A stretch of DNA of 64,000 nucleotides, taken from the IMG/VR virus record IMGVR_UViG_3300023714_000001; one strand, given 5' to 3'. This document shows, in pieces, positions 11,433 to 61,400 of the stretch. Below the pieces are notes generated by a model. That model did no database searches. It worked only from the letters and a program-made list of their open reading frames with translations, and was not told where the DNA came from. Source of the stretch: a virus (Duplodnaviria > Caudoviricetes). Position numbers and translations under genes: made by a program. The first letter of the stretch is position 1. Each line of letters begins with the position of its first letter.

Positions 11433-11442
11433 TGTAAAAATA

Positions 11443-11466
11443 AAAGACGCCAAACGGCGTCTTTTA
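11443..11466. terminator. Bidirectional terminator
   Basis: aaaagacgcc-aaac-ggcgtctttt between convergent genes. Confidence 0.8.
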
Positions 11467-42300: not shown

Positions 42301-45300
42301 CAACAGTCGAGTATTATCAGCCAACACTTACCAGACGACTTAATAGTGACTACTACAACAAATCATTGTATAGTGGTTATTGGGATAAATGGGGGCATTC
42401 TCTGTTACCTACGCCAACAGCACCATTTTCCCCGCTCGTTTATTTAATGGACCCGTACTATCTCGAGGAAGAGCATAAGGAAGATCGCCCATATACGGTT
42501 TCCGGCACAATGTTTGATAAAGAAACTCCTTGGGGTATCGTCCTTAATCCTACAATCGGTGAACTTGTAAAACCGGTTGTTAAGATGAACCAGGATAGGC
42601 TGACGGATGACGGGCAGGATGTAAAAGCCATTATCTATGGTATAAACCAGCATATCCGTGATACTGCTCAGGGTGACCACGCATACGCCATGGTATTTGA
42701 CCGCGAACAGATTACCGCCGGCGAATATACTTCATACGCATCTCCCTCACTTGGCCAGTATAATATCCGTATTGGTAAGGATCGTGGGGAGCAGATGCGT
42801 CAGGAGCAGCTTGATGCTCTTGGCGGGCCGATGGAACCAGAGCGCCGCGAAACTCTTTATGAAGGCGGCGGTTCTGGTGATGGCTCTGGTGGCGGCGGAT
42901 TTGGATTCGGCGGTTCTGGCGGCGGAGGTTCTTTTGGCGGGCAATACCCGCTTGACCTTTTGGGACAGACAAACCGAAAAATATACGTAGCTGCCGCCCG
43001 CAATGAAAACAAAGGCGGCATGATCACCACCGACTATATTCGCCATAGTAAAGTAGACGAAATCCTCGGCAACGAAGATATAGGTGACCTGATTAACGCC
43101 GGAGCTGGTGGCGATCTTGTTCACGAGACAGCTCAGTCGCTAAGATTAATTGGCGGTATCTATGGTTATGGCGCAAACAGAGCGTTTGGATTCGGCGAGC
43201 GTGATGGAAAGCAAATTGCAGATGCCGGAGACATTGACTCTTTTAGTCGTTCATTCTGGGATGAATCCGTTGGTGGTATTGGCGGCGGCGTAGCAGAAAT
43301 TGGGCGTCGTTTTATCCCGGAATACAGGCGAAACATTCGCGTCAATCCGCTCTTAAATACGATGCCAGATTGGCTTCCAGAGAAGCTAAGATTCGGGGAC
43401 CCGTATACGCAATTGCCTAAAGGAGAGGCTCGCCTTCCCGGCAAAGGGTATGAGGCGTTAAATGAATTACACCCGGACTCCTATGGAATTTATGGCAGCT
43501 ACGACCGTTATAAGATTTTGGCTGACGTCGCTCCAAATTCAACAGAGTTTAAGGTCTGGAAAAAGATTGCGAACGCTACAGTTACCGACCCCGCTCTAAA
43601 AAAGGACATGGAAAAAATCCAAGAGCGCGTGAATGAACAAAACAAACAGCACGATTTTTACGACTATCGGATTCTCGGCAAAGACGTGGATTATCAGGAT
43701 GCTATTATCCAAGAGGTCAACAAGGATGGTTCATTCCGCATTCGTGGGTCGAATAGATTATTAACTCTTGCAGGCATTGAGTTTGATAAAACGACCGCGA
43801 TGAGTGGGGCTGGTAATCAGATTATGGCCAAGTATTTACATCCCGGCCAGAGTGTAACCATCGCAACAGATTCGAATGAGTATAACAGAGACAATCCTGA
43901 CGGCACAAATAATGGGGAAGGCACTGTAAACGCAGCGGTATTTGTTGATGGTGAAAGTGTCAGTGAGCTTTTACTTAATGAACACAAGGACGTAATCAAA
44001 AAGAAAAAAGACCATCTTAATGCTGCGGACGTATATGCCCTAACAAGTACATTTGACCGCGTGCTTGGCGGTGCTGCAGAGATTGTTGCTCATGCCGACC
44101 TGCCGTTAATCCATGATCGATGGTTGCGTGTAAGAAGCCCGCTTGAATCGTATAACGCAGAACAAGTATACGGCACGCCATACCAAACATGGTCAGATGT
44201 GTGGGGAACGTATATCCAACCGGCTATGGAGAGGGCAGTGTCGGATCATTGGGGTGTAATCCGTGGTGCCGCAGAATGGTTCGCTCTAAATAACTTGCAG
44301 GCCAGAGAAGGTATTGGTAAAACAAAGAAAATGCTGCTATCTGGAGCGGCTGCGCTAATGGATAGAGGGGCATTTATTGGCAGTAGTATTGCTACGTTCT
44401 TCCGTCCTGGTGATGGCGAATTATTCCAGAAAGGCGGTAAGATAGGCTTAGGATTGTCGCTCCTTGGCAATCTGTATACCAGTGCGCAGTCAAGTCCAAC
44501 AGAAGCAGCCGCGAGCTATGCCACGGTTGGCTGGATGGCTGCAGATGTGCTGGATACAGAAAAAGAAAAATTCACCAAAGCGCTTAGCGGTTCTATAGAG
44601 AAGTTTTTCCGAAATGAAGAATCGTGGAAGTTTAGAACAAAAGGTGCGTTTATCGGCGCGGCTGCCGGCGTGGCCATGTCTGGCTTATTTGGCCCATCGC
44701 TTGAAAGTGGAGAGCGTGCCCATTGGACTCCGGACAGGATAAAACAAAAGTGGGAACTTGAAGATTACTTTGACCGCCTGACATATATAAAATATACGGG
44801 GCTCTATAACCGCGCAGCAGAACTTGCCAAGAGCGAAGAAGGCACGGATGTAAAGAAGATTTTCGATGATTATGAAGAATGGAGCGATTGGCGCCGCGAA
44901 ATTATGCAGGACTCGGACGTAAACAACACCGAGTTCACCCATCTAGCCAAGAAGAGAATCCAGCGAGCATTAGATGGTCTTCATGATGAAATCTTCGGCA
45001 GTAATGATGAGAATAACCATCGTTTTGAATATAGCAATGGCTTTTCGATAAACGATCTGCCGGGTGTCCGTAATGGTGTATTCCATTCTGAAGAAGTATC
45101 CGAGGAAGAACGGCTTTATACACTGAATGCTTTGGTAACGATGGGAGTCCGATACAATAAACCGGGCACGTCGCGCACTCAGGAAGATCGTGACATGAGC
45201 CAGCTCAGAGAATTTGAGCGCGTGTATGGGACTAAAATTCCCGACTACTATCAGGTGCATCACATTGTAGAGTTCTCAGAAAACGGTGCGGATGACCCAT

Positions 45301-46037
45301 CTAATATGATTGCTCTTAACCCGGACGATCATCAGTATATCACCGAACAGCAAAAGAAAATCTCAGAAGGCGATTTTACTGCTGCTGAAATCGGCGCAAG
45401 AACTGCAATGCGTATCGGCGAATATGGACGGGCGGCACTGCTCTACAAGAAGGCCGCGGAATCCACTATGTATGGTTTGCGGGCGGATGCTAGGTGGACA
45501 GATGTTGTAAAAGCCTTGCCGAAATACGAGCGAGATTATTTCACTGAGTTCATGCGTGAAAACGATCCTGAAAAGCGCGAGGAAATTCTGCAGACCGTAT
45601 CGCCATTTTTAAGGCGAGCATTGAAGCAGGTCTGGAAGATGGACTACGAATCTGATAAAGGACCGGACAATGAAGAATATTTTCAGAGTCATAATCTGCC
45701 AAACTTCCAGTGGGAAGGGTGGGATCCGGATTCTGACTTGAACAAGGTAAAAGCAAAGACCATCAAAAACGAAGGCATGCTTTTCTCCGATTTTGGAATA
45801 TACGAATCTACGTATCGTGACCAAGAAGTTATCAATGCGCCAAATCTATCACCTAAAGGTGGAGACGATCCGATAACGGTACAGGCAAATCTGCAGGCAA
45901 CTTTGTCTGGTTTGGGGCTTATGGGTGTCGAAGTTTCTGTCGAGCCAAAGTCCACAAAGGGTATTACCTCGGTAATTAACGTCACGAAGGTAACATCGTA
46001 TAAGCTGGGAGAAACGGTTGATAACCTATTCTCCTGA
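39342..46037 (+). CDS. Giant virion protein (tape-measure position) with degenerate SNase-like and HNH domains
   Basis: 2231 aa after the chaperones; RLLTLAGIEF...AAVFVDGESVSELL; VHHIVEFSENGADDPSNMIALNPDDH. Confidence 0.65.
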   Translation: MAEDKLYEEANEDLSDTLIDFGTDIAAAGVAAVSFYRAGGVRTLSKKLSDYSHSGLKRAVDDFRALDYDHINYRTLKKTYEQIRNGMRNFKAQPHDNRIRWEARPGTPIELIMEAAKLRESSPVIQENARWQREVVRRIQKTAYKNLSAALGAAKIKNRDTIKLAQAQMAKLVAHVASEARKGHVDFDTARLQKNFKVTGAGGDFYQKVIDTAKSQAEKFSLNAAKHKGRTIENQIADRLEAVETLERAAGGRYSGNTLRDKAFGDGLVTIRDTLSHADRFNDTDGTLFIGSDHSVKERSFLKALQELHERVKAKNDKEMLERFENIVIDPHLRKTADGEIYSLDPLYKARYKVLKSLAYTMPGKILKLADMMMSEATPAFYQFKKGTLNPVLAAFEEGNTTKRIMSDYFYMAGKVFRYDEESNKLLDESVKELDGGTLFSTRFAGMANLYKDINGLNAQRVRQDGSISKILDLNAAPGMNPWDYLAGYFSGERDKKYLPNVIKDIKSGNLFSTSDDIDDVYERLSSLNIFLNKSTRGLTLPMLSALENVARETAAQDGRDALEIISLLRLNNGEQILDGVKAMVGAHGGTDGAFLNNRLNRLVSKFARNESATKGSVELLEDISGAWTDDISAAGGLDFYGQLQRELSKEALMRMAENSRDEAGGLYNAIKGVIEKSSMSHADEEAAKRLAYTSILDNETMNAFTGFGKYQRSEYDVVDPITNQSLLESLIAKYTTVAGGKTTRAGEQDASRVIQDMVNDGHEWQMLHANGRNHESDIPEQYIESDYAILRKSSGPLEILKAINQSITDSSLDALKDEGMNFINQLKAGGHDAGNLSRMTMVPYFFLRRLGGDDLPPFLQFSNEALDSTWGLTKAIAKRIAPVAIGETYLEWGDDTVGAVTGVRPSAGFVNTLDYMDIGARTMLDMTGIGGFLESESYVNPIMQYWGGRDGYYDADEERDFIANGYEAVRRGRYWSFGSVNEFRGSTVEYYQPTLTRRLNSDYYNKSLYSGYWDKWGHSLLPTPTAPFSPLVYLMDPYYLEEEHKEDRPYTVSGTMFDKETPWGIVLNPTIGELVKPVVKMNQDRLTDDGQDVKAIIYGINQHIRDTAQGDHAYAMVFDREQITAGEYTSYASPSLGQYNIRIGKDRGEQMRQEQLDALGGPMEPERRETLYEGGGSGDGSGGGGFGFGGSGGGGSFGGQYPLDLLGQTNRKIYVAAARNENKGGMITTDYIRHSKVDEILGNEDIGDLINAGAGGDLVHETAQSLRLIGGIYGYGANRAFGFGERDGKQIADAGDIDSFSRSFWDESVGGIGGGVAEIGRRFIPEYRRNIRVNPLLNTMPDWLPEKLRFGDPYTQLPKGEARLPGKGYEALNELHPDSYGIYGSYDRYKILADVAPNSTEFKVWKKIANATVTDPALKKDMEKIQERVNEQNKQHDFYDYRILGKDVDYQDAIIQEVNKDGSFRIRGSNRLLTLAGIEFDKTTAMSGAGNQIMAKYLHPGQSVTIATDSNEYNRDNPDGTNNGEGTVNAAVFVDGESVSELLLNEHKDVIKKKKDHLNAADVYALTSTFDRVLGGAAEIVAHADLPLIHDRWLRVRSPLESYNAEQVYGTPYQTWSDVWGTYIQPAMERAVSDHWGVIRGAAEWFALNNLQAREGIGKTKKMLLSGAAALMDRGAFIGSSIATFFRPGDGELFQKGGKIGLGLSLLGNLYTSAQSSPTEAAASYATVGWMAADVLDTEKEKFTKALSGSIEKFFRNEESWKFRTKGAFIGAAAGVAMSGLFGPSLESGERAHWTPDRIKQKWELEDYFDRLTYIKYTGLYNRAAELAKSEEGTDVKKIFDDYEEWSDWRREIMQDSDVNNTEFTHLAKKRIQRALDGLHDEIFGSNDENNHRFEYSNGFSINDLPGVRNGVFHSEEVSEEERLYTLNALVTMGVRYNKPGTSRTQEDRDMSQLREFERVYGTKIPDYYQVHHIVEFSENGADDPSNMIALNPDDHQYITEQQKKISEGDFTAAEIGARTAMRIGEYGRAALLYKKAAESTMYGLRADARWTDVVKALPKYERDYFTEFMRENDPEKREEILQTVSPFLRRALKQVWKMDYESDKGPDNEEYFQSHNLPNFQWEGWDPDSDLNKVKAKTIKNEGMLFSDFGIYESTYRDQEVINAPNLSPKGGDDPITVQANLQATLSGLGLMGVEVSVEPKSTKGITSVINVTKVTSYKLGETVDNLFS

Positions 46038-46093: not shown

Positions 46094-49000
46094 ATGGCAA
46101 ATAACATTTATTCCAACCGGGCGACATCCCGACTTGCAAATAGAGAAAGACAGAATCGGGCGGCAGAAGACCGTTTAATTAAAAGAAGCAGTCAACAATA
46201 TTTAGAAGAGCTTAGGCAGTACAATGAAGACAAAAAGGCTTCAAAAAGTGTGACTGACAATTCGTTGGTGAAGCCGGTATTTCAGCACCCAATAGACTTA
46301 GAGATAGAACTTGAGATCTTAAATAACCAAGCGCTGATTCCATCCATGTCTAGAATTGCTAATTTTGACTGGGCGGGCGCAAATGCAGTTTATGGGGCGC
46401 TCCCAAAGCGCTTTAATGAGCGAGGGGAAGTAAGTACTGAAGTAGCAAATATATATGAACAAAAATTCCTGCCCGTAGTGGGAGAGCTGTTAAATAGCGT
46501 ACAATCCCCTACACAGTTAAGCACGGTGCAATCTGGTGATGAGCTATTAAAACGCACAATCATTCAGGATGCCCAGCTTAACTATGCCTTCAATTACAAT
46601 GCCCTTGTAAAAACGAATATGCAAAAACAAAAGAAAGTTGTTGAGCATATCCAGAAAACCGGGAAATTTATTGAGTATGACCTCGAGGGTATTGGAAACG
46701 ATATAACTGAATTCTCCTTTATTGAATTTGACACCAAGGCCAAGACCGGCACGCCGGTAAAGAAATGGATGACCGGCCTTACTGGTGTTAATCCGGAAAC
46801 CGCAAAAGAACTTCAGTCATTAATTGACGATTATAGACAGTTCGGTTTCAAACATGGTGACCAGAAAAATGGTGTATCTGAAGCAGATCGTTACAAACTG
46901 GAAGCCATTGCTAAACGTGGGCATAAAAAGACGGTTGTAGAAAATAAGGATGGCATTAACATCCTTAAAAGTTATGCTGTTAACGAAGACGTTTTGATTC
47001 CGCAGGTCGAAGATTTAGAGCGCGGTCTGCAAGGGCTCATTGATGACTATAATGTCATCCACAGTGCAAAACCCAAAACATATAGTTTCGACGGGAGACA
47101 GTACCAACTCTATCGCGACGACTATATGATGCTACGCATGCTTTACGACGCAAAAAAACGCAATATAGCTCTGTCAGGTCTCAACGTTTTTGGTTACGAT
47201 AACGCCCAGATAAACCGCAAATTCAACCAGGCTACTGGTGACGCATATTTGCTATGGAAGCAGATAACCGGCACGGGCGACATGAACGACGCATTCCTCA
47301 TTATGGATAAAACAATGATCCATCGTGAGAAAAACGACCCCGCAAAAATTCTGGCAAATGTTAACGGCGCTCTCGAAGATATCGCGGCGAATCCGGGGAA
47401 TACATTAAATACATCCCGGGGGCAGCAGGCAAGATACGGTAATATGATTGACCCGGCAACCGGGAAAATCATAAATGGCCCCGACCGTTACCAGCAGATG
47501 ATGCATGAGCTGTTTAATGGCGTAATCTATGCGCAGCACGCAGCTTTCTCGGATACAGCTATTCAAGGCTTCACAACTATTGATATGCTGAAGGACAGCT
47601 CTTTTACGGCTACAGTAAAAGATGAGAACGGGAAGAATATAGCAAACCCTGATTATATATTCAGCGATAGCAAAATGGAACCCGAAAGACTCGCTAAGGC
47701 CGGGGATATCTTTTATGTCCAAAAGGGTGTTATGGGGAATACCGCTGCTGGCGGCATGAGCTTCGTTGTTGATGGATTATCTGGCGATATAAGATTCGAT
47801 GGAGTAAGATTCGATGCTCAGGGGAAACTCCTGACAAAAGAGAATCTGGTAGCGCCGGCGCTAAAGAGTAATACTTATGCCATGCTTGCTGGCGTAAAAG
47901 AGATATCTGTTGACAGCGCTATCGGCAGAGAATATGGAAAAATCAAAGGCACAGCCGGGGCGGAAAATCTCGTAGCCTTGATGTTTTATCAGTATGGCGA
48001 GGCATATAAAGGAGACGCCGAAGGAAAATTAAAGGACTTAAATGTCTGGGTAGGCACAAAAACCGAAGCGGAAGAATTTCTAGGTTCTAACCCATATGTA
48101 GGTTCTGTTGTCCCCAAAAGCACTCCAAAGACACTCGAAGATTGGCGCACCATATCTTCGACAAATAGGCATACTGATACAACAGGAGTATCTTCTTCTG
48201 TAAATGAAAAATTTGGCAAGAGGCATGAAGATGGCTCTATAGCAGGCTTAAATGAGGCTGTAAAAGAATCTAACATAACAAAGCAGCGGGATTCTGCAAG
48301 TAATTGGCTCCGCAGCCTTAGTTACAAAAAAGCGAAAGCTGCGCATGAGTACATAACAAAGCTGAATAATGATCTGAGCAAAGCTATGACTTCCCGCAAT
48401 ATAACTGGTGGGATTTCCGAATTTGCAATACAGCAATTAAGTGCGTTTGCTGGCAATAGAAAAGCTCTTCTTAGCGAGTACAGCATGTTTGAGCAAAAAG
48501 AAGGTGCTGAGGTCTTAACCCAGACTATTGCGAATGCTACTTATTCTGCTGGATATCTTGATAAGGTAAAAGACATACTGAACGAGTCCTTAAAGCTGAC
48601 GGAAAAGCTGGCCGGCCCAAATGCGGATAAAGCTGTCAAAGATCAGTACTTTACGCAAATTTATGAACATGCTTTGGCGGTATTAGCGGAAGAAACAGGG
48701 GCTTATACGCCGGCACAAGCATATGGCCAGGCAGCTTCCGGTCAGCTTAGAACCGGCAAACAGGCTCGCTCAGTTTTGCTTGACATCTCCAGTATTGCTC
48801 CAACAAAATTTAATAATAGTTCAGGCCTTAACAGCCAAACTGGGATGTTTTTTGAGATTGATCCTCACGAGACAGAACCGCACTGGGTAGCTAGGCTGGC
48901 GAAAATGCTCGGAACTGAAAATAAAGCCGTAGCCGTACGCAAGCTAGGCGCTCTGATTTCCAAGCAATATGGAGAAATAAGCGGTATCAAGAATCTCTCT

Positions 49001-52000
49001 CGTGATCTTGCTAATATGCCTGCGGAGCCATCGGCGCTGATGTTGAGAGTTAATCAGGCGTTAAGAGTTATACAGAAAAAACGCCCAGAGGTTCTGAAAG
49101 TACCAGAAACAAAATACCTGGATACAGTGAATGGGCCCGCATCTATTGACGTCTTTAATAGTCTTTCCGAAAAAGAGCAGAAACCTATTAAAAAGAAGAT
49201 GTATGATACCAGCGGCATCCAAAAAGTTGCCAAGGGCAGTGCAGATATTGAAGATCTTGTAAGGAAAATTACAGAATCTATTTTTGCGCCAACAAGCCAG
49301 TTCGATATGAATGGTAACAAAGTCACTGATGCTGCACGAAGTGAATTAATCGCGCATGGATATTCCTCATGGGAAGCAGAGGAGATGATTCGTGACCGTG
49401 ACAAGCGTATAGGGGCAACAAAGAGATATCTGCGTAACGCGTTAACACCGATTCTGAGTTCAAACAATCAGGTAACGTACAGGTTCGATTCGGACAGAAT
49501 GCGGCTTGAGCTCATTGACGCAGCAAGTGGCGGCAGCACGTTTGATATCTCCAATCTGCTGCCGATGGAACACTATGATTCCAAGACTGGCCGCTTTTAT
49601 ACGCAGTTTGGCAACTCTCAGATTGCCACATTAAAAACTCTTGGGCGAAGTGTTGATGAAAATGGTGTGGCCGGAGCTTTTGAATTACGCAGTCAGATTG
49701 ATGTTGCGGCAGACCATTTAGCGCAATTTGCAAGATACGCGAACAATGCAGGACGCACAGCAAGTGAGAATATCGGTACGCTGCAGTGGGTAATGAAAAA
49801 AGCAGTCGAGCTTATTCGTCCGGACAGTGTAACAAGGTATGATCACCAGGATAAGCGTTTCGGGTTAATGCTTGACTTTATGCCGCTCGTAAAAGAGTTT
49901 GGCTACTTTAAACGTCTTGGCGCGTTTGACGAACTAAACCTTAGCGAAGGCACGCTAAAAGCTTTGAACTCGATGGCCACACGGCTTGAAAAAGAGAACG
50001 GGGAAACAGAGTTCGGGAAAATAAAAGCCCTAAAAGATGTAAAGCCGGATGAACTCGAAGCCATTTATAAAGACTTCGATACCATTTTCGGTGCCTTAGC
50101 AGAAGATAGTAAGTTTTCACAAGCTGTATTTGGCAATCTGCCACAAAACAAAAAAGAATACGCACAATCCAGATTGGCTCATATCAACAGGCATGCCGTC
50201 AAAGATCCGAGCAGGGCGCTGGCTTCATTTACAAACACGGGGTATGACGCAACGGCTTTCGCTGGCAAAGATAATCGTTCCGTAACTGTTGCTACGGCCA
50301 GAGCTCGGACGATGGATGTAGACAGCTTCTTACGTGAAGATGAGAGCCGAAAAGAGCTTGTCCGTGGCGGCAGGATTCTCCTTACCGAAGCTGAAGAAGC
50401 CGACATAACGCATGGGCGCTACGGAACCATTCGTACGAGAGCACTGAATATCGATACTTCGGTTTACGAGTCTGTGATTGCCGCCCGCCTTGAAGACGAA
50501 GCAAGTGGTAAGGTTCAAAAGGTATTATCCAGCCTTAAAGATTCGGACGAAGTAGTCCGCTTCTTAAACGAGAACGGCTCAATAGCCAATCCGCGGCTTC
50601 TGCATTTATTCCCGAAGAATATTAACCAGAAACACCTGACGGATGGCCTTATTGATATAGATGAACTCCAAGGCACTGCAACTATAGAGGCAATAGAAAA
50701 CGAGAAGAAGGTTCGTCGTGCCACAGAAGAAGTGGTAGAGCTTGTCCGGGAAGCGGATAAAGTCGCCTTCAAATATGCGGCTGATGGTCGCGGCTGGGAA
50801 TATGTCCAGCGCGGCGATATTATTGCCTGGGATAAAAGCTACGCCGGTACTCCGTCAAAAGTACGAGCAGAGCGAGAAGGATATCTTTATAAGCGCTACT
50901 TCATGGGAGGACGTGAAGTAGATGAAGCCGAAATTAATGATGTACTCAATAAGCATTTTGACAAATTCAAAGAGTATGGCAGGGGTGCATCTTCTAAAAC
51001 CAATGCTGAAATCAGGCAAATAGCGGCAGAAGTTTTATCCGGAGAAGGGTACACGCTCCGCTACATTGTTAAGTCTGGAGACGCTCTGGGATATCAGAAG
51101 CTCATAGACAATAAAGAAAAAGCCGTAAACGACTTTTTACTGGCCGGTCTCGGTGAAGCTGATGAAGACATTAAAAAGCTTTTAGTCCCCAAAGAAGACG
51201 GCGTGGCGAAAAAAGTTCTTCGTCCGTCACCAGAGGCCCTGAAGGATATCGAGCATTTTAATGCTTATCTGGAAGCGAATGGGTACCGAGCAATTGACAA
51301 AAAATCTATTGCGGATTGGGGCGAATTTAAGAAAAAGGTTATCGCCGAACAGTCGGTTAAATTTGATGCGGTAACACAATCGTTACAAGACGCTGGCTTT
51401 GTAGATAAGGACACAATCAAAAACGGCGTGAATCGCCTCGGTATTGTCAGCACGGCAATGCTTGAACAAATGAAAGGTTCACACCGGGAAAATGACCGTA
51501 TCGAATCTCGTGTTGCCGATGCAATCGACGCATATGCTAGAGCAATAGAAGCTGGCGAAAAAGCTAAGGCTGAAGCAAAAGGAGTTGAGTATGCCGGTTC
51601 TTTTGAAGCGGCATACCAAAAAGCATCCGAAGAGATCCTTGGCCAATTGCAGCAGAAAGCTGTATTTAAGGACAGAGACGGCAATAATCTTCTCGCCGAT
51701 TTGGACTTGTCAGCTGAAAGAAAATATGACGGCATTGTCCTTAGCAATGATTTGTACACCGTCGATATTAACAAGCTGGATAAAATCGTTGGCCAATATG
51801 TAAAGGAAAACCGCGTTACGGCGGATGGTGTTAGCGAAAGTGTTCGAAAAGCAATAGCTTCTTCCATCGAGTACAACGCCGGTGTAGAGATGGATAAGAA
51901 GGAATCGGCGTTCAGGGAAGGCCGCCTATCGCAAGAAGCATACGATAAAGCAAAGGACGATTTCCAGGATCAAATAAAAAAGGCTGAAAGAGTTGCCGGC

Positions 52001-55000
52001 GGTGACAAGAACGAAGTCCTTGGCTATCAAAAAGTATCAGGACTATCCGTAGCCGCAGATGCTGATGAGGTAGGCCTCAATAACGGCAGCAACAGCAAAG
52101 GCGTAAAGATGACACGCCGTCTTGCCCAGAACCTTAACCAGGAGGTTGTGGATGAGAAGGGGCTCGATTCGGTTCGCTTGGCTTATGAAAAGATGTTGCA
52201 AAATACCTCAGGGGAAGAACAGCAGCAGGAGATTCTTGACCGCTTTAACAGACGCTATAAAGACTTTGGCGTATCCGCAAAATGGAATGCGGAAGATGGC
52301 AAGCTGACGGCCACTTACAGCGAGCCGGGAAAACTACATCGCATAAATGCAGACATAATCAAGAACATGGAAGAGGAAATAATCCGTGGTCAGGGATTTG
52401 GGGCTATATGGGGTGATGGTGTTAGTACTGGCGGGGTTCGCGGTGTTATCATAGACGGGCATGTTCATGCAGATGATATGCGCGAACTTAAACAGCGTGG
52501 CATCAGTGAGAAGTCTATCAATACGATGATTAAAGCTTATGAAGAAGCCCATGGAGCTAAAATCATTGGCATGAATAACTTCCTTAGCCAGTATTCTTAT
52601 CAGTCCAGTGCCGCGGCCAATGAATTCAACGCCCAGATGGGAAAAGCCGAAACAGAAGCTGAACGCGCTGAATTAATCGAGCGGTTTACCAAAAACAATC
52701 CTGATTTTAATGTAAGAGGAATCTGGGAACTAAACACAGATAAGCAGTTCTTCCAAAATGACCCCCTGAACCCGAATAATCGTAATATGATTATTGATAT
52801 GGGCGAAGGCGCAGTTCAGCGCTACGTTGCTGTGCCAATGGAAAACCTTTCCATGATGGATGCAGCAAATGGAGAAGGAGTAATATCTGGTTCGGCTGTC
52901 CGCGACAATATTAGCAGCCTCCACCACTATTTCGAAGAGCAAAGATATCGCGGCGCTACAGTAAGCGAGTTTTATAAGAACAAGTATAATGAAGGAATTG
53001 GTGATCTTCTAAAATCGATAGTAAATCTCTCGGTTCATAAAGAAGGCGCTGCAGCTCAGGTAACAAGCGATTATATTACGGGGTCTGGCACATTCAAGGC
53101 TGATATTATCCGTATGACCGCAGATAATAATTTTGAGACTATTGTTCGTAATGAAGCGGGTGAAGTTGTAAACGGCGAAAAGAAAGCCTTTGGTTTGATG
53201 AATACAGCCAAAGTAGATGGGATGAGTCTTGCTGACCATATCAGGGCCGGGCACAATATTAACGCTACATTCCTTGGTGAAGATTTCTTTGTAAATGCCT
53301 TGCAGGATGACAGTTTGTTTGGAATTTTGGGACAACTTGGTATAAAGGATAATAAAAAAATAGTCAATGACTTCCTCGATAATATAAACGATGGCGGCGG
53401 ATTGGGCTTGCAGATGAGACAGCCTGCCGAGTATAATACGTCAGTTGGTGGTTCATACTTATTCCTTGACAGAAGCCTTTCTCGTAACCAGGCAAGGATA
53501 ACACAAAGTACACTTGCCGGCCAGAACGGCGATAAGGACGGTGACTTGGTTTATGCACTGCTTGCCCGTGCAGATGCACAAATTAAAGTTACTGGTGTAA
53601 ACGAGGACGGAGAAGAAGTTGTATTAAAATCCTTCAATGCTCGCATTAACAACCTGCAGAAAAACCTGATAGAGAATAACCTGGATGCCGGGAATCTTGG
53701 TATTAAAGACCTGGAGAATTTCTCGGACGTAAAGATAAGCGTAGGTTTTTCCGGGAAAGACCCGTTCGAGGCATACGCCCGTTCAGCGGAAGTAATTGGT
53801 ACGTCTTCACTCACAGGCGTAAAAAGAGATGTGCTAACGCTTAACGACTTAGACAAAGCTATCAGGATCCGTAACGAAAAAGCAGAGACAATGGTTGCCG
53901 GCAGGGTTTGGAATTCAAACCAGTTAAGTGTGAGTGACCGCAATAAATTCAATGAAGCTTTTGAGCAGGAAATTCAGGGCAGCAAGGAATTTAACCAAGC
54001 TATTGAGGAGTACAACAAAGAGAATGGCAAATCAATAACTGCCGAAACTCTGACAGCAGATAGTTTAGCTACAAATTCTGATGGACAGGGCATTGCAGAC
54101 AGATACTTGAAAATTCGATATGGTAAAGACACTACGTCGGATGAGTATAATGCAGAGGCCGAAATTCTGGCCAACAGAGTAAATAAGCTGAATATGGATG
54201 ATGAAATTGCAGCACATATGGGCAAAGAAAGAGCTGGTATTTTTAACATGAATACCTACCGCATGACCCAGGTTGCACATATTATCCGCGATCACGGTTT
54301 AGACAATGGTTTAACTGATGCCGACCTAAATATAATCAACCAGTTTATGGTTCATGTTAAGGAAGCTGGTCAGGCTCCTAAAAACGCGACAGCGACAGCT
54401 TCCAGCCTGGAGGGGCTCGACACGGCGCTGAAAGACTTCTGGGGTATTGGCACGGGCCGGAATGGAGTAGTCTATCAAAAACAGGCAGACCCGACAAAGT
54501 TAAACGAACTCATTGATGAGGTTTACGCTGGAGAAATTAAGGAGTTTAAAAAACTTCCGGAACGAATGAAAGATCCGGAAACTGGCACTGTGAGTGCTGA
54601 CAGGATTAAGGAAGCTTTCAGCCATCTTATGTCTGAGGGCAATTCCCTTAATGGTGAACTTTACAAAGCTTTGCGTGTCGGCTATGCGATGGATATGTCA
54701 TACACCAATATTGGCACGCCAGATGAAGGCGATATGCTCTACCGCGCTAATCAGATTAAAGATAAATGGGTAGAAGACATTGGGTTTGAAGATGCCAAGA
54801 CGCAGCACGTCGATATCATGACAACTCCGTCAAGGATCGCGGGAACCTCTGAATTTAGCGACACACCGTATACCCAGGACGAAATGATTGGAGATCTTTC
54901 GGAAGGCGAGCTGACAATGGGAGATCAGGTGCGAGGCCTGTTAAGTTCGATAAAAAAGAACTTCAAGGGGCATGGTGCGATGGCTATGCTCGGTTTTGCC

Positions 55001-55336
55001 GGAGCTACAATGGCAATCGGTATGGCGGGCGGAGCACCTACCGCACCAACACCGACCCAAGGGCAGGCACAGGGGATACAGCAAGAAAATGCGATTTATG
55101 AAATCCCCAGTACGATGAGCATGCAGGGGGTTCAGAGTGGGGCTAACCAGTCATACATTATCAACGTAAATGCATCCACAGATAAGGGGCGCGACTTTGC
55201 AACAAACGTAATAAATCAGGCGTTTGCGAATATGCCTCAAAGTGCCGGTGGAAACACCATGACCATGAATATCAAAGACTCGTCAAGTAATATCGGCTAC
55301 AGTGATATTGCTTCGTATGTCTCAGACATGTTATAG
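46094..55336 (+). CDS. Giant putative virion RNA polymerase (two-barrel type) with N-terminal DEDDh exonuclease domain
   Basis: RQP (53417) followed 36 aa later by NGDKDGD (53525); VQRGDII hybrid-motif-like segment and KLIDNKEK; YDLE, NVFGYD and HAAFSD exonuclease motifs. Confidence 0.65.
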   Translation: MANNIYSNRATSRLANRERQNRAAEDRLIKRSSQQYLEELRQYNEDKKASKSVTDNSLVKPVFQHPIDLEIELEILNNQALIPSMSRIANFDWAGANAVYGALPKRFNERGEVSTEVANIYEQKFLPVVGELLNSVQSPTQLSTVQSGDELLKRTIIQDAQLNYAFNYNALVKTNMQKQKKVVEHIQKTGKFIEYDLEGIGNDITEFSFIEFDTKAKTGTPVKKWMTGLTGVNPETAKELQSLIDDYRQFGFKHGDQKNGVSEADRYKLEAIAKRGHKKTVVENKDGINILKSYAVNEDVLIPQVEDLERGLQGLIDDYNVIHSAKPKTYSFDGRQYQLYRDDYMMLRMLYDAKKRNIALSGLNVFGYDNAQINRKFNQATGDAYLLWKQITGTGDMNDAFLIMDKTMIHREKNDPAKILANVNGALEDIAANPGNTLNTSRGQQARYGNMIDPATGKIINGPDRYQQMMHELFNGVIYAQHAAFSDTAIQGFTTIDMLKDSSFTATVKDENGKNIANPDYIFSDSKMEPERLAKAGDIFYVQKGVMGNTAAGGMSFVVDGLSGDIRFDGVRFDAQGKLLTKENLVAPALKSNTYAMLAGVKEISVDSAIGREYGKIKGTAGAENLVALMFYQYGEAYKGDAEGKLKDLNVWVGTKTEAEEFLGSNPYVGSVVPKSTPKTLEDWRTISSTNRHTDTTGVSSSVNEKFGKRHEDGSIAGLNEAVKESNITKQRDSASNWLRSLSYKKAKAAHEYITKLNNDLSKAMTSRNITGGISEFAIQQLSAFAGNRKALLSEYSMFEQKEGAEVLTQTIANATYSAGYLDKVKDILNESLKLTEKLAGPNADKAVKDQYFTQIYEHALAVLAEETGAYTPAQAYGQAASGQLRTGKQARSVLLDISSIAPTKFNNSSGLNSQTGMFFEIDPHETEPHWVARLAKMLGTENKAVAVRKLGALISKQYGEISGIKNLSRDLANMPAEPSALMLRVNQALRVIQKKRPEVLKVPETKYLDTVNGPASIDVFNSLSEKEQKPIKKKMYDTSGIQKVAKGSADIEDLVRKITESIFAPTSQFDMNGNKVTDAARSELIAHGYSSWEAEEMIRDRDKRIGATKRYLRNALTPILSSNNQVTYRFDSDRMRLELIDAASGGSTFDISNLLPMEHYDSKTGRFYTQFGNSQIATLKTLGRSVDENGVAGAFELRSQIDVAADHLAQFARYANNAGRTASENIGTLQWVMKKAVELIRPDSVTRYDHQDKRFGLMLDFMPLVKEFGYFKRLGAFDELNLSEGTLKALNSMATRLEKENGETEFGKIKALKDVKPDELEAIYKDFDTIFGALAEDSKFSQAVFGNLPQNKKEYAQSRLAHINRHAVKDPSRALASFTNTGYDATAFAGKDNRSVTVATARARTMDVDSFLREDESRKELVRGGRILLTEAEEADITHGRYGTIRTRALNIDTSVYESVIAARLEDEASGKVQKVLSSLKDSDEVVRFLNENGSIANPRLLHLFPKNINQKHLTDGLIDIDELQGTATIEAIENEKKVRRATEEVVELVREADKVAFKYAADGRGWEYVQRGDIIAWDKSYAGTPSKVRAEREGYLYKRYFMGGREVDEAEINDVLNKHFDKFKEYGRGASSKTNAEIRQIAAEVLSGEGYTLRYIVKSGDALGYQKLIDNKEKAVNDFLLAGLGEADEDIKKLLVPKEDGVAKKVLRPSPEALKDIEHFNAYLEANGYRAIDKKSIADWGEFKKKVIAEQSVKFDAVTQSLQDAGFVDKDTIKNGVNRLGIVSTAMLEQMKGSHRENDRIESRVADAIDAYARAIEAGEKAKAEAKGVEYAGSFEAAYQKASEEILGQLQQKAVFKDRDGNNLLADLDLSAERKYDGIVLSNDLYTVDINKLDKIVGQYVKENRVTADGVSESVRKAIASSIEYNAGVEMDKKESAFREGRLSQEAYDKAKDDFQDQIKKAERVAGGDKNEVLGYQKVSGLSVAADADEVGLNNGSNSKGVKMTRRLAQNLNQEVVDEKGLDSVRLAYEKMLQNTSGEEQQQEILDRFNRRYKDFGVSAKWNAEDGKLTATYSEPGKLHRINADIIKNMEEEIIRGQGFGAIWGDGVSTGGVRGVIIDGHVHADDMRELKQRGISEKSINTMIKAYEEAHGAKIIGMNNFLSQYSYQSSAAANEFNAQMGKAETEAERAELIERFTKNNPDFNVRGIWELNTDKQFFQNDPLNPNNRNMIIDMGEGAVQRYVAVPMENLSMMDAANGEGVISGSAVRDNISSLHHYFEEQRYRGATVSEFYKNKYNEGIGDLLKSIVNLSVHKEGAAAQVTSDYITGSGTFKADIIRMTADNNFETIVRNEAGEVVNGEKKAFGLMNTAKVDGMSLADHIRAGHNINATFLGEDFFVNALQDDSLFGILGQLGIKDNKKIVNDFLDNINDGGGLGLQMRQPAEYNTSVGGSYLFLDRSLSRNQARITQSTLAGQNGDKDGDLVYALLARADAQIKVTGVNEDGEEVVLKSFNARINNLQKNLIENNLDAGNLGIKDLENFSDVKISVGFSGKDPFEAYARSAEVIGTSSLTGVKRDVLTLNDLDKAIRIRNEKAETMVAGRVWNSNQLSVSDRNKFNEAFEQEIQGSKEFNQAIEEYNKENGKSITAETLTADSLATNSDGQGIADRYLKIRYGKDTTSDEYNAEAEILANRVNKLNMDDEIAAHMGKERAGIFNMNTYRMTQVAHIIRDHGLDNGLTDADLNIINQFMVHVKEAGQAPKNATATASSLEGLDTALKDFWGIGTGRNGVVYQKQADPTKLNELIDEVYAGEIKEFKKLPERMKDPETGTVSADRIKEAFSHLMSEGNSLNGELYKALRVGYAMDMSYTNIGTPDEGDMLYRANQIKDKWVEDIGFEDAKTQHVDIMTTPSRIAGTSEFSDTPYTQDEMIGDLSEGELTMGDQVRGLLSSIKKNFKGHGAMAMLGFAGATMAIGMAGGAPTAPTPTQGQAQGIQQENAIYEIPSTMSMQGVQSGANQSYIINVNASTDKGRDFATNVINQAFANMPQSAGGNTMTMNIKDSSSNIGYSDIASYVSDML

Positions 55337-55404: not shown

Positions 55405-58400
55405 TTGGTAACGGATCTCAAAAACCCCGCAATCGGTTTACCAGATATGGGGGATTATTATTACGATGCTCCAGATCAGGAAGCTTATTTTGGGGAAATG
55501 GACAAGAACCTCAACTCTGTACGTCGCGACAAAGCTAACTCTGTAGAGGCGTATAGATTTTATCAGGAGGACCCTCCGCAGCCTGGAGCAGATGAAAAGG
55601 GAAAAGTCTATGTATTTGACGTTGAACTTGGCGCTAAAGGCATTGGCGACGACAGTGAAGAAGTCGCCGGCATAAAAGTGGATGACGGCGATACGCTCGC
55701 AATCCCCATTGGCAGTATTAAAGTGCCTGATGAAAAATGCGAAAAGTATCTAAGCTACATAAAAGGATACGTAAGTACCCATAACAGCAGTGGAGATGCC
55801 ACGGCAATAAATATCCGTTTTGCAGGCCTTGATACGAAAGAATTGCCCCATTACCGCAAAATAAGCATGGACGAGCTTAACAAAAAAGAGCTGTCTGAGG
55901 TAAATCTCAGCGCCGCGCTTGGGGACGATAACTACATGGTGTCAAAATACAAGAGCTGGATGCAGACACGCAAGACGCTCGATAAGGCTTATGATGGTTA
56001 TAAAACCAAGGGCACGTTTTTTGATTATGCACAGCCCAGTGATAGCGTCGTGCAGGTTGTGAAAATGGATGACGACAAGTATCATCAGTACTTTTCTGAT
56101 GGCACGAATGGCTATGTACTCGTGGCAAATGCAACAAACAATTACAGTCCGGAAACGATAGCTGACGCTGGTCTTGGCCGTGATGTTGTAGTAAACGCCT
56201 TAAACGATGCAGAGGCTATGCGTATTGTTATTGACGCTACACAGATAACTCGTGACGGCGGCAGCATAAAGACAATGTTTGATACAGAATTGTACGGCAC
56301 TGGAATCGGAAATGAGGTGAGTCGTCAGCTCGACATGATGTTTGACTCTTACACAAAACATCAGCGCCCAGGCTTTAATACGTGGGGGCAGGATGCCTAT
56401 GGCCGTTGTATTAGTGCTGTCTATGTAAAAATCAAGGGCAAGTGGATTAATCTCAACAAACTTGTTATTGCCGATACGAACATGACCGAAATTAACAAGT
56501 ACAATAATGGCGACCAATCTTCCACGGTCATTGATCTCGATAGTTACGAGTATGATAGGAAGGCATACGCGGACAGCCTGTATGCTGATACGAGCAAATT
56601 CGATGACCGCGAACAGGTTCAGAAGCAGATTTTCGGACAGACTTGGAAAGCCCTGAAGGAATGGACTGTTACAATTGGCGATGTGACTCTTTTTGTGCCG
56701 CCGACCAGTATCCGCACACTCACCCAGACAAAGGCTGAAAGAATGCCGCTTATTCGTGCAAAAGGGTCCATGGCCAAAAGCTCAACCAAAAATCAGCGCA
56801 TTATCGAAATGGATCTGTATTTCAATGAAGATCGTGGCATAAATGGTTATGAGTATAAGACCAATACCCGTCCGGATAACAAGGGTAAGGACGTGACCTA
56901 CTGGATGAATGGTTTGCGGGCGCTGTATGCTCAGTTCCGCCTTGCGCCGTTCCTGCCGATAGAAAGCCACTATATTAATACTGTTCTCGGGGTGGATGCA
57001 GTTTCTCTTGTCAATTTTTCGTGTGAGACTGTGCCTAATTTTCCGAAACTGATTAAGGCCACAATCCAGTTGTCGGAATTTGAGTATCGCATTTATATGC
57101 CGGAGATTCCTTATGATGATGGCAGCGATGACGAGACGGAAGTCCGCAACTATTTTAGTAAGCAGATAAACTATCCGTTATTCCGTTACTATTATCAGCG
57201 TTTATTGAGGAACGGTGAAGAGCTGAAGGATGTTAAGTTCCTCGATAAAAAATACATCACGAGTACCTTCGGCAATAAGACGTGTCTGGTGCCAGCTAAA
57301 TTTGTTGACCCGTACATCAGGTTCTACGTGCCAAACAAAAATCAGCTGGAAAAACTAAAGAAGGCAAAACTTGAACGAATGGCGCGTCCCAATACTGTTC
57401 GCAGCATATCAAAGACCGAACTCAACTTTGCTGATGAAATGTCAAAGGTAAAGAATGAGATAGACTATATCAACACCTCGCAGTCTCCCATTGATAAAGT
57501 CAATGATTATCTAAAAGCCCCGGATATGGATGGGTATATACTTGCCGGAATTAATGGCAAGATAATGATTGGCAAGGCGGGTGACGCTAATACGTTTGTC
57601 CCGGATCCGGAGAAAACCAAAGCATTTGAAAGTCTGATGGGGGAAGCAGCCGCTTATTATGAAAACGGCCTCACTTCTCTAAGAAGAGAAGATGGTCAGC
57701 CGCTCTGTCAAAAACAGGGAACCTTAACATTTGGTCCGTCCAATTCTGACGGCTCCATTTACGGCGCGTATTTTTCAATAAACATTGAATATCCGGATAT
57801 ATCCGAAGACTCATTGAATAACCTTAGAACGCTATCTTCTGTTTCTGGCGTAGCGTCTGCAGACGAAACTTTTGTAAACAGAAATCTTCGCCTCAGAATG
57901 TCGGTAGATCTTGGTGAAAGCAACCTTACCTATGCCACCAATATTGTAAAAGGGGCGGCACTTGGTAAAGGGGAGTCCTTGTTCTATTTTGACACCAATG
58001 CGGATTCGAGCTTCCTGAACTTTTTAACAGAAGTAAATAATAAGCAAGGCGTTGGCGGCAACGAAGATGCTAATGAAGCAAAGGCAATGGTCGACTATGT
58101 AAGTGCGGCCACACTGGAATTTGAACCGTATAATGACGATGAAGATTTCCTGGTGGAAGCTATTCATGTTAGCACCAGTAATACGTTTTCCCAGATAACT
58201 CTGCAGGAAACGTCAGGGTATGCACCGCAGTATATGGGTGGTACAGATGTTTCCCTGCAAATAAGCATGTACACGCAAAGCGAAAAAGCCGCTTCGGCCA
58301 TAAATGCCCTGCCTCACGTATCGGCAGAGTTTGCACGCAATTACAGACTGGTTTTGGCGGCATGGCCATTAAAAATCGAAACAGAATTTACTAAGCTCTT

Positions 58401-61400
58401 TGGCATCACCGATGTAATGGTAGAAGCCTGTGAAGTGGATACAGTTCCGAATTATCCTGGCCTCTATCACATCACAATGAGCCTGGTATCTGTAGACAGG
58501 TCTTTGCGCAACAGAGAATCCCTAAAACAGAAAGATATGAAAAACTTCCATAATCTGTCTGTACAGGGTGTTGCTCGTGAGCGTCGATGGTCGTATACGC
58601 AAATGGCAGAGTTCCTTTCTGAAGCAGAGCTTTATCCGGATCTTGAACTTCCGCCTCTTAAAGAACTGGCGGAAAGCGGTTTTAACTTTATTCGTTACTC
58701 GAATACAAAGAGAGTCTACCCTGACCCGGACTTCTATTTTACATATAGTTATGTCCTGATGAGCCAGCTTATCCGTGAAGCTGTACTCAATGCACTGAAC
58801 TCTGATGCGTGCCAGACTGTGGTTAGAGACACGACCGGCAAAGAAATTAGTGGCAGCCTTGCAGAACGTATAGGCTCCTGGAATCGAAATTATGAACTCT
58901 CTAAGGGGTGGGATAAAGATCTTGGCTCCGTATTTCAGAATGACGATCTTATTGCCGCCCGCATTATCACAGACTGGGAAAATGTTGCGGACGATGAACG
59001 TGACGAAACGTGGACGATTGCACCAAACGTAAAGGTGGCTATGATGGAGAAGCGCATGCTTAACCGCATTAACGATTCTTCTAAGCAAAGCTATCAGGAG
59101 AAAAATGGTGCTGATATTCATTCGTCTACAACATACGATAATGTTGATGGTTTAAAGCAGCCGGCAACTGGTCAGACCACAGAAACTGATAAGGACGGCA
59201 ATGTAACTGAGCTGAAAGACGCTCCCGATAATCAGAATAGCACAGAGTCTAAAGACACAAACGATATTGGATTATCGAAAGAGAATGACGCAAAGAACCT
59301 TGAAAAATTAAAACAGCAACAGCAGGATATTAAAGATGAAAAAGCCACGGGGAAATATTCTTCTATCATGTACAAGAAGAACGAAGATATTTCCAACCGT
59401 ATAAATGGTGTCATTAAACATTATCAAAACATTTCCATTGATGAGATGGGTGACGGTATTGGAGATATTGTTCAGCAGCTGGTTGCCGCGTTTAATACTT
59501 GTCCTAAATACAACAATTCGCATATTGAAGGCGTCCCGGGGCAAGGCAAGAGTGAGATTCCAAACGGGATGTTTGGTAAAATCCCGGCCTTCCTAGACGC
59601 CGCCGCTGACGCGATTTGCAGCAACAATGGTGTTGACTACAGCGAAGAAAGTGCAGAGCATTTTAATCATACTGCTACCACTGTTGGCGGAGCAGCTGCG
59701 ACAGGTGCCCTTGCAGGAAGCGTGGTGGCTGGACCTGTAGGCACTGTTGTTGGGGGCGCAGCTGGAGCTGCAGTCGGTGGTGCTACTGCCTTTGTTGCTG
59801 CTGCAACAGGGGTCCATGATAATAATGGTAAATCCCCCTGGAAACACAGTACAAAATATCGCGGGCGGCTTAAAATTGACGGCATAGAGCAGATGTGGGC
59901 ATTTGATGATGATGACCCACAAAAAGACTATAAGGTTGAAATGATTGCAAAGAACGCTACAGAGTTTGGTTATTTCAACTTTAAGTTCTACACGCCTGAG
60001 GAGTTAGAGGATAGATTCGGCTATTATGGTCATATCGAGCAGGACAACACTGTAGAAAACAGTGAAACCGTAGTAGAAGCCCATCCCCGCATGGGAAGAT
60101 ATTTAGCCGACCCGTATTACCGGTATGCAGATGCAAAAGTTCAGGAAGAATATGTCAGAAGATGTCTGACGGATTATGGGTTCGCTAAAAAAGCCTTCCT
60201 CAGAATCTGTATTCTGTACATGCAGGTTTTAGTAAGCTACAATGTTTTTCCTTCGTTTTCCTATGATGTTATGCGCGATGCTCTTACATACGAAGAGAAT
60301 TTACAAAAGATTGTAACCGGTATGGAAGAACTGCGTAAGAAAAAGGCGGAAGAGGAGAGAACTAAATCCGAAACCCAGAAACAGTATGGCACTTCTAAAA
60401 AATATTCTCAAAAGAAGCAGCCTGGTGAAGTTAAGGCTGATGCTGCCAATGTAGTGTCGTATGTTGGTGCTGCTATTCCTGAAGGAACTACTGGCAACAC
60501 AAAAGACGCCAAGGAAGAAGATAAGAAAAAAAGTGCCGAGGGTGAAAATAAAGAGGGCGAAAACAAAGAAGGCGCAGAAGCGAAAAAAGCGAATGACAAT
60601 CCTGGCATCCCTGATATAGCTGCAGCAACAATGGTAACCAAAGCGAATGTTTCCAAAATTGCCAGCCAGATTAATAAAAACAAAGAAGCAATGGATAATG
60701 GCAAACTGTTCCTTATGTGCGCCATGGGCGTTGTGGATGGTGATAAGAATTTCTTGCAGCTTCTCCTTAACAGAGAGTATGATGCCTTAAATGCCATCGC
60801 CGGAGCAGCATGCAGTGGCAAAGCATCCCCAAACAAAAAAGATGCTACGTACGAAACGCGCCTCCGCAGCTTTATCCGGGCTTTAGCAGGAGAAAATGTT
60901 ATCGATAACTCACTGATCGGCTCGGGTGAGACTGAGGCACCTTCAGCTGTAGTAGCTCAGAATGACTCTCGTGCTAACTGTTCTGCAGCGTCAGAAGATC
61001 CGACCATGTATATGGTACATAGCTTCTATGATATGGTTGTACATGACTGCCGTGGCAGAATGCTGCGCGCCTTTCCAACATTCTATATGTTCTTCATTGA
61101 TGAAGGACGCAAGATTGGCAAATTTAGACTTCACGATAACTTCTACAACACTAACGCGATTTCAAGCATAACGATTTCGAAATCACGCAAGAATCCTACG
61201 GATGTAGCAGAAGTTGTAATGACGAACTTCTTCAATACTTTCACCACAGAAGATGAAGATCTCAATATGAACTATTCAGCAAACTTCACTGATGTGTTCA
61301 AGTCTTTATGGCTGCCAACCCTGCAGTCTTATGCAGTGGATGAAGAAGAACGCCGTACAAATGCTCCTAAAGCTGAAAGATTCCGGTTAAGACCTGGTGC

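Follow-up and report, generated by a model that had tools for sequence, protein, structure and literature searches.

A giant tail-module protein of a jumbo myophage that joins a predicted DEDDh exonuclease to a diverged beta'-like RNA polymerase core

An RNA polymerase carried by the phage itself frees the start of the viral programme from the host. To our knowledge, such phage-carried enzymes have been demonstrated experimentally in few lineages, namely N4, PhiKZ/AR9, crAss-like phi14:2 and Thermus P23-45. We analysed a stretch of 64,000 nucleotides of tailed-phage DNA (hereafter the window), which corresponds to bases 67911-131910 of the 211,158-bp IMG/VR virus record IMGVR_UViG_3300023714_000001 (CheckV completeness estimate, 90%). 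An uninterrupted open reading frame at 46094..55336, plus strand, encodes a giant protein of 3080 amino acid residues (aa), in which a predicted N-terminal DEDDh 3'-5' exonuclease is followed by a diverged copy of the core of the largest RNA polymerase subunit (beta'/Rpb1). If this is true, the family of this protein extends the virion-polymerase strategy to jumbo myophages of the 0305phi8-36/ME3-like lineage, in the slot of the tape-measure gene.

In Thermus phage P23-45, the virion RNA polymerase gp96 (PDB 8H2N) is fused to the tail tape-measure protein, and is thought to enter with the DNA, preceding a further polymerase of the phage, a non-virion one (Chaban et al. 2024, PMC10770324). Its likeness to the 3080-aa protein lies in a two-barrel-type polymerase set inside a giant protein of the tail/tape-measure slot. 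The structural match between the two is weak (Z 6.6, root-mean-square deviation (rmsd) 3.4 Å, 94 aligned residues), and they have no sequence similarity. P23-45 is a siphovirus and the polymerase of gp96 is N-terminal, without clamp and without exonuclease, whereas the present protein belongs to a myovirus and carries the polymerase in its C-terminal third, together with a clamp-core-like region and the N-terminal DEDDh exonuclease. Phage phi14:2, which is crAss-like, encodes gp66, of the YonO/QDE-1 clade, in which the polymerase module is likewise hidden in a giant virion protein (bioRxiv 10.1101/2020.03.07.982082); the protein described here is a probable virion protein. The two differ in that gp66 comes from a podovirus, does not lie in the tape-measure slot, has a DFDxD motif and lacks an exonuclease. 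In BFVD, crAss-like giant proteins matched our polymerase model with E 1.8e-4 to 4.6e-3, and a piece of gp66 with E 4.2e-3; matches to this clade were thus weaker than the ones to cellular beta'.

The exonuclease-bearing form may be compared with the giant-protein virion polymerases P23-45 gp96 and crAss gp66. Constant fusion to an intact 3'-5' exonuclease is without precedent among virion polymerases in the literature searched, in which no paper describing this family was found. The P23-45 and crAss papers mention neither the 0305phi8-36/ME3-like lineage nor an exonuclease fusion, and for 0305phi8-36 the jumbo-phage reviews name the YonO-like gene alone and leave its slot protein unlisted (PMC7824862). 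Distant counterparts are present in two cultured phages, Bacillus phage KLEB27-3 and Acinetobacter phage ME3, and the "tape measure" label of the slot is called into question.

The exonuclease domain and the beta'-like core

Five near-full-length relatives of the 3080-aa protein (28-93% identity) were found among 5.8 billion clustered proteins, 21 representatives, nearly all of 2660-3456 aa, among 1.84 billion proteins, and three related loci in IMG/VR. The 17 full-length relatives share 16-40% identity overall; identity to the distant members is about 30% along the entire length and about 70% in the final 130 residues. An earlier sequence-only reading of the window had described the open reading frame together with seven named motifs. 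Each motif occurs once in the protein, exactly at the coordinates listed below, and both catalytic sets are intact in 17 of 17 full-length relatives. The fusion of exonuclease and polymerase, claimed in the same reading, was borne out as constant throughout the family, with both active sites preserved in each member. The exonuclease part comprises the following features.

46643..47653, plus strand: predicted DEDDh 3'-5' exonuclease domain, about aa 184-520 (AlphaFold2 model, VIA-wide alignment, invariant pentad)
46679-46687, plus strand: exonuclease motif Exo I, D196/E198, within YDLE (from aa 195, nucleotide 46676)
47183-47200, plus strand: exonuclease motif Exo II, N364..D369, NVFGYD (from aa 364, nucleotide 47183)
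47537-47554, plus strand: exonuclease motif Exo III, H482..D487, HAAFSD (from aa 482, nucleotide 47537)
47612..48193, plus strand: beta-rich domain that follows the exonuclease, aa 507-700 (as seen in the model's secondary structure; the fold matches listed all come from the exonuclease)

Structural models cover residues 1-760 and 1851-2850. The AlphaFold2 model of residues 1-760 showed a mean predicted local distance difference test score (pLDDT) of 76 and a predicted template-modelling score (pTM) of 0.72, with pLDDT 80-96 over residues 170-540. By VIA-wide alignment to 48,161 PDB representatives, the best match was epsilon, the proofreading subunit of Pol III (1j53_A; Z 12.9, rmsd 2.5 Å, 161 of 174 residues), and the best 50 chains were all DEDD nucleases, including 3'hExo, ExoI, ExoX, TREX1, RNase T, Cap18 and polymerase editing domains. 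Foldseek against PDB returned weak rows for this model, and the fold was settled by the VIA-wide alignment. Across 17 aligned sequences, the most distant of them at 16% identity, only seven columns were invariant within the first 760 residues, five of which make up the DEDDh pentad D196, E198, D369, H482 and D487. The three Exo motifs proposed from the sequence therefore fall within one RNase H-like alpha/beta fold of the DEDD nucleases, with D-x-E in Exo I, D in Exo II and H-x4-D in Exo III. These findings confirm the exonuclease reading for the modelled fold and the conserved active site, and 3'-5' activity is predicted; the neighbouring structures do not tell a DNA from an RNA substrate. 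The fold and the five catalytic residues are common to DnaQ/epsilon-type DEDDh exonucleases (Pol III epsilon, RNase T, ExoI/ExoX, TREX1, 3'hExo), from which the present domain differs in that Exo I and Exo II are set apart by an insert of about 90 residues and in that it is embedded in a 3080-aa protein of a phage structural module.

The polymerase part comprises the following features.

52631..53824, plus strand: predicted beta'/Rpb1-like clamp core and catalytic double-psi barrel, aa 2180-2577 (four structure libraries, motif order)
53039-53113, plus strand: HKEG..DYITGSGTFKADII motif, within the clamp-core/catalytic-barrel region
53414-53425, plus strand: MRQP, motif of the catalytic region (from aa 2441)
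53525-53545, plus strand: NGDKDGD, motif of the catalytic region (from aa 2478)
54140..54292, plus strand: helix of 51 residues, aa 2683-2733, candidate bridge helix with conserved AG..NM.TYR (DSSP of the model, invariant columns, Atlas alignments)

The model of residues 1851-2850 (pLDDT 76.4, pTM 0.55) was searched in four structure libraries. Foldseek against PDB gave 255 matches at E<=1e-3, the best 50 of which were all bacterial beta' (lowest E 6.5e-7), and re-alignment of the Foldseek list left 570 chains at Z>=8. The VIA-wide search of PDB representatives, which is independent of Foldseek, placed largest RNA polymerase subunits in all of its best 13 positions (Z 8.2-10.4): those of Pol I, II, III and IV, Sulfolobus Rpo1, vaccinia virus, African swine fever virus, Mycobacterium tuberculosis beta', the plastid PEP and QDE-1, and the non-virion enzymes of PhiKZ and AR9. 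The alignments cover 139-268 residues within model residues 330-727, which correspond to residues 2180-2577 of the protein. Matches in BFVD were pieces of giant phage proteins (ME3, crAss-like phages, phi14:2 gp66) and polymerase subunits of jumbo phages and giant viruses, while each neighbouring cluster in the ESM Atlas bears Rpb1 Pfam domains. Since the alignments begin near residue 20 of Rpb1/beta', the predicted module holds a clamp-core-like part besides the catalytic barrel. Overall, the closest structures are the cellular largest subunits (bacterial beta', archaeal Rpo1, eukaryotic Rpb1/A190) and their PhiKZ and AR9 derivatives, with Z 10.1-10.8 and 183-276 residues aligned across clamp core and catalytic barrel. 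With Z 10.4 over 265 residues for Pol I A190 and Z 8.8 over 139 residues (rmsd 3.4 Å) for QDE-1, the modelled polymerase looks structurally closer to cellular beta' than to YonO/gp66, a difference that is within the noise of a 1000-residue model.

Conserved residues pointed in the same direction. In a 21-sequence alignment, ten columns were invariant within residues 1851-2850; eight of these are R2442, P2444, Y2447, S2450, D2480, D2482, G2483 and D2484, and the remaining two K2316 and K2335. Three motifs are collinear with Escherichia coli beta', HKEG...DYITGSGTFKADII with GKQG...DYSGRSVITV, MRQP with NRAP, and NGDKDGD with NADFDGD, and thus follow the order common to cellular beta'/Rpb1, that is, K-x-G..DY..SG, then (N/M)R-x-P, then N-x-D-x-DGD. 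The spacing of R2442 and D2480 is 38 residues, compared with 35 for R425 and D460 of E. coli beta'. A DxDxD metal loop preceded by R-x-P was accordingly found both among the invariant residues and in the alignments from the four libraries. The proposal that MRQP and NGDKDGD mirror the catalytic loop of beta' held up, the loop falling within the region that the four libraries align to catalytic barrel plus clamp core of beta'/Rpb1. Model and conserved residues together show residues about 2180-2800 to be a predicted, diverged copy of the beta'/Rpb1 core, with clamp core and catalytic barrel bearing RxP...DxDGD. The 51-residue helix carries a conserved TYR motif and the Atlas alignments reach model residues 942-966; in the model, this helix is a plausible candidate for the bridge helix, and H2754..QAPKN for the trigger loop. 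The one-chain architecture differs from that of multisubunit RNA polymerases, in that a counterpart of beta was not recognised and the chain is fused to the exonuclease and a probable C-terminal anchor. A single-subunit polymerase of T7/N4 type was rejected, since the structural matches were all two-barrel enzymes, and a chance occurrence of the motifs was rejected as well, since the motif residues are invariant through the family.

The polymerase is too diverged for sequence searches of Pfam, PHROGs and PDB, all of which miss it. The whole protein gave zero matches in Pfam and PHROGs, and none in the PDB sequence library either as a single sequence or as a family profile. Pfam searches of 17 family members and of the slot proteins of KLEB27-3, ME3 and 0305phi8-36 returned nothing relevant; the Rpb1 and Rpb2 Pfam models matched neither the 3080-aa protein nor 16 relatives, and PF00562 was absent from the phage genome in a genome-wide search. 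At the nucleotide level, the gene had no megablast match among phages and plasmids, and three slices of the protein had no tblastn match among 50,697 GenBank phage records. A DNA-binding insertion that is missing from the protein of the window, namely helix-hairpin-helix repeats (PF00633, E 4.7e-8), is present in one homologue of 3456 aa.

Tail-module position of the gene

As judged from its sequence, the phage is a 211-kb contractile-tailed jumbo myophage, with Bacillus phage 0305phi8-36 and Acinetobacter phage ME3 among its relatives. Its portal protein is 39% identical to that of 0305phi8-36 and 30% to that of ME3, and groups also with related Bacillus jumbo phages and Moorella phage MTATph1. 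The gene order portal, protease, capsid, sheath and tube paralogue in the window is that of 0305phi8-36. A temperate phage-plasmid, the frame in which the sequence-only reading had set the protein, found little support. A ParB_N-like match at 12184-12324 (minus strand), in the open reading frame 11467-12588, scored 18.7 bits, under the curated cut-off of 26.3 bits, and no tyrosine integrase (Pfam Phage_integrase) was found in the genome. The related 0305phi8-36 is described as lytic in two papers (PMC3357382, PMC2222632).

The 3080-aa open reading frame is the middle one of three giant genes in succession, the products of which are not paralogues of one another in pairwise comparison.

39342..46037, plus strand: giant gene upstream, its 2231-aa product homologous to virion protein gp145 of 0305phi8-36 and to ME3 gp035
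55405..64000, plus strand: giant gene downstream, its product of 2918 aa in the genome as a whole, homologue of 0305phi8-36 baseplate hub gp147 and ME3 gp037
54944..55333, plus strand: C-terminal 130 aa of the 3080-aa protein, probably a structural or membrane anchor (conservation and hydrophobic segment)
54968-55036, plus strand: Gly/Ala-rich hydrophobic segment, aa 2959-2981, within the C-terminal 130 aa
7624-15237, within its retrieved locus: slot protein gp146 of 0305phi8-36
5004-12308, within its retrieved locus: slot protein gp034 of KLEB27-3
3173-7984, within its retrieved locus: slot protein gp036 of ME3

By synteny with 0305phi8-36 gp143-147, the gene lies between the gp145-like gene and the gp147-like hub gene, which is the slot of the presumed tape-measure gene, following the genes for tail tube and chaperone and preceding the one for the baseplate hub. 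The trio of giant genes is kept even in a relative of just 26% identity. In 0305phi8-36, the slot protein gp146 is named "hypothetical tape measure protein", and mass spectrometry of virions detected it as well as gp145. The tape-measure assignment of gp146 rested mainly on tail length, and the protein could be aligned with its relatives over the last 60 residues only (Hardies 2007, PMC2147016). The 3080-aa protein matched no tape-measure family in Pfam or PHROGs. Its C-terminal 130 residues may serve as an anchor to the hub or to a membrane; in the slot protein of 0305phi8-36, too, it is the C-terminal end that can be aligned between relatives.

The same position between gp145-like and hub genes is occupied by KLEB27-3 gp034, ME3 gp036 and 0305phi8-36 gp146 (2537 aa), which show no BLAST similarity among them and none of which is annotated as a polymerase. 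KLEB27-3 gp034 (2434 aa), annotated just as "structural protein", is a distant homologue of like architecture from a cultured phage; it has Exo I, Exo II and NRYP...ADYDGD, and a hidden Markov model of the family matched both modules collinearly. ME3 gp036 (1603 aa) has REP...DHDQD. A BFVD model of an uncharacterised ME3 protein (its piece 2, with 802 residues) matched our polymerase model; to judge by length, 1603 being twice 802, it would probably represent the second half of gp036.

The candidate beta-like half and alternative explanations

The part of the protein between the exonuclease and the beta'-like core comprises the following features.

48374..51643, plus strand: conserved middle part, aa 761-1850, possibly a beta-like N-terminal half (conservation profile, alignment blocks)
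50801-50830, plus strand: YVQRGDIIAW, in the middle part (from aa 1570)
51095-51124, plus strand: QKLIDNKEKA, in the middle part (from aa 1668)
52058..52120, plus strand: candidate beta-like active-site motif DADE..NSKGVKMTRR, aa 1989-2009 (conservation, alignment of an Atlas cluster)

The conserved stretch ahead of the beta'-like part spans about 1400 residues and comes near a beta subunit in size. Within QKLIDNKEKA, K1669 was invariant in a six-sequence alignment, and E1675 and K1676 were nearly invariant among 21 sequences. In the second candidate, DADE..NSKGVKMTRR, which resembles GDK..GNKGV of beta, R2009 was invariant and D1989 was present in 15 of 17 sequences; a phage cluster of the ESM Atlas with an Rpb2_6+Rpb1_2 fusion aligns with the model from its residue 139 (aa 1989) onward. 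An ESM Atlas feature search with residues 1450-2200 and one fragment gave no usable match, no shorter or split relatives turned up in a search with residues 1500-2180, and a further profile search gained only one extra protein.

The reading that we favour, and hold to be somewhat better than an even bet, is a giant multidomain protein of the tail module with exonuclease and RNA polymerase, probably located in the virion and ejected with the DNA into the host. The protein would be made along with the tail proteins, sit in the virion and enter the host with the DNA. Conserved residues 761-2180 would provide the beta-like half of a single-chain two-barrel RNA polymerase, and the ejected enzyme would transcribe the earliest phage genes independently of the host polymerase, with the box-plus-hairpin elements in a block of minus-strand genes, described below, as candidate targets. 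The split second polymerase encoded elsewhere in the genome would take over afterwards. The hydrophobic, highly conserved C-terminus would serve as an anchor, fixing the protein at hub or tail, or in the membrane. For the exonuclease, our best guess is that it attacks host nucleic acid or, at the entering genome, trims 3' ends of DNA or RNA, rather than proofreading, which is pure conjecture.

Several observations weigh against this reading. The template-modelling scores of the polymerase matches were low (0.13-0.30) because only part of the 1000-residue model aligned, just 200-370 residues; the polymerase claim is made because the matches are unanimous and the catalytic residues invariant. 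The modelled stretch 1851-2180 was mainly helical, with low confidence at 1977-1998, and no beta/Rpb2 chain stood among the top VIA-wide matches of the 1851-2850 model. When family slices 900-1500, 1450-2200 and 2150-2850 were compared by hhalign with beta and beta' profiles, built from 80 gammaproteobacterial loci (Neff about 2), the results were insignificant even for the structurally recognised beta' part (best P 0.033), indicating that this test lacked power. A double-psi barrel of beta type was not demonstrated by these comparisons. YVQRGDIIAW and QKLIDNKEKA, which had been assigned to such a barrel, do exist and are partly conserved; their placing in the barrel was not supported, the profile comparison with beta being insignificant and the motif at 1989-2009 being a rival. 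The description "single-chain two-barrel" is a likely one, and we regard a complete enzyme of this type as reasonably probable. With respect to the virion, gp146 of 0305phi8-36 has neither BLAST similarity to the 3080-aa protein nor any DxDxD, so that the slot does not always hold a polymerase; as it is polymerase-bearing in KLEB27-3 and ME3, the slot protein appears to turn over or to lose its enzyme. The 1760 modelled residues of the 3080-aa protein contain folded globular enzymes, and such domains fit poorly in the lumen of a tail tube, which makes a true tape-measure role doubtful. Virion delivery may reasonably be inferred from synteny, its sole support. The packaging claimed from the sequence was not upheld, its basis being synteny with a phage whose gp146 lacks detectable homology. 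In sum, the folds and architecture of the earlier interpretation are largely right, and the second barrel, the packaging and the proofreading role are unproven.

An intracellular, late-acting polymerase-nuclease, which is not packaged and happens to lie in a late/tail operon, would account for globular enzyme domains unlike a helical tape measure, and it would suit both the absence of detectable homology to the virion-detected slot protein of 0305phi8-36 and the fact that packaging of this family is deduced from synteny. We nevertheless consider it unlikely: the position between two virion-protein homologues is strictly conserved, down to the relatives of 26% identity, the extremely conserved C-terminus with its hydrophobic segment is what a structural interface would have, KLEB27-3 gp034 is annotated as structural, and a separate polymerase candidate for intracellular use is already encoded in the genome. 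The failure of structure and profile searches to find a beta-like barrel bears on a different explanation, by which the protein holds only the beta'-like half and is either an ejection or tape-measure-like protein needing a beta-like partner encoded elsewhere, or an inactive structural relic. Jumbo-phage polymerases are indeed often split over several genes (PMC7824862). Invariance of R-x-P and DxDGD in 21 of 21 sequences over a long divergence argues for activity, however, and the beta-sized conserved region upstream, the conserved motif with R2009 and D1989, the alignment of the Rpb2_6+Rpb1_2 fusion cluster and the lack of split relatives in the search all speak against a half enzyme, which we judge decidedly improbable.

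The co-occurrence of both intact active sites in each member also raises the question of whether exonuclease and polymerase act on one and the same nucleic-acid 3' end. Any such coupling, be it proofreading, PolD-like editing or an injected machine that resects the genome end for its own polymerase, appears quite remote; in the resection variant, one possibility is that a single-stranded, hairpin-bearing template is exposed and then read by the polymerase of the same protein. A two-barrel polymerase sharing its 3' end with the exonuclease, as a proofreading transcriptase or as a PolD-like DNA-synthesising enzyme with an editing nuclease, is in our view very improbable indeed. Archaeal PolD does couple a two-barrel core with a proofreading nuclease, as described in two papers (PMC7708050, PMC6355029). 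In the present protein, however, the two domains are separated by about 1700 residues, its neighbours in structure are enzymes of transcription with no PolD chain in the top lists, and the gene stands among tail genes, not replication genes. The nuclease of PolD, moreover, belongs to a different fold family, which counts against a shared 3' end as well.

Second polymerase candidate, box-hairpin elements and neighbouring genes

A second, split polymerase candidate is encoded by two genes elsewhere in the genome, at 57960-63273 on the minus strand, outside the window. It consists of a 1116-aa protein with KYP..GSDRDGD, followed by a 686-aa protein with helix-hairpin-helix-like repeats and DGEG..QIQLRPHTVKA. 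BLASTP of the 3080-aa protein against this candidate gave nothing significant. The genome also contains an 11-nucleotide box, AAACAAGACAA, followed by a GC stem of 6 bp with a GAA or GGA loop. Seven exact copies were found, all on the plus strand, against 0.15 copies expected in shuffled sequence for both strands together, and all seven fall in a block of minus-strand genes. The copies, all outside the window, lie at the following genome positions.

13602, plus strand: AAACAAGACAA-hairpin
49253, plus strand: AAACAAGACAA-hairpin
50939, plus strand: AAACAAGACAA-hairpin
52812, plus strand: AAACAAGACAA-hairpin
53188, plus strand: AAACAAGACAA-hairpin
53846, plus strand: AAACAAGACAA-hairpin
54498, plus strand: AAACAAGACAA-hairpin

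These elements are candidate promoters for a phage polymerase. Two polymerases together with box-hairpins would fit, by analogy, the P23-45 scheme of a virion polymerase followed by a non-virion polymerase (PMC10770324).

A protein identical to the 3080-aa protein is encoded also on contigs of 272,602 and 326,679 bp, suggesting either that the genome exceeds the 211-kb record or that these contigs are concatemers. In the upstream giant protein, aa 1968-1999 form an HNH endonuclease motif (PF01844, E 1.1e-5); given the exonuclease of the 3080-aa protein, two adjacent giant proteins of the tail module have nuclease domains. An RNA ligase gene (34809-35957, plus strand; phrog_968, E 8e-57) also lies within the tail module, between a putative tail chaperone gene (34122-34733, assigned by position) and the giant genes.

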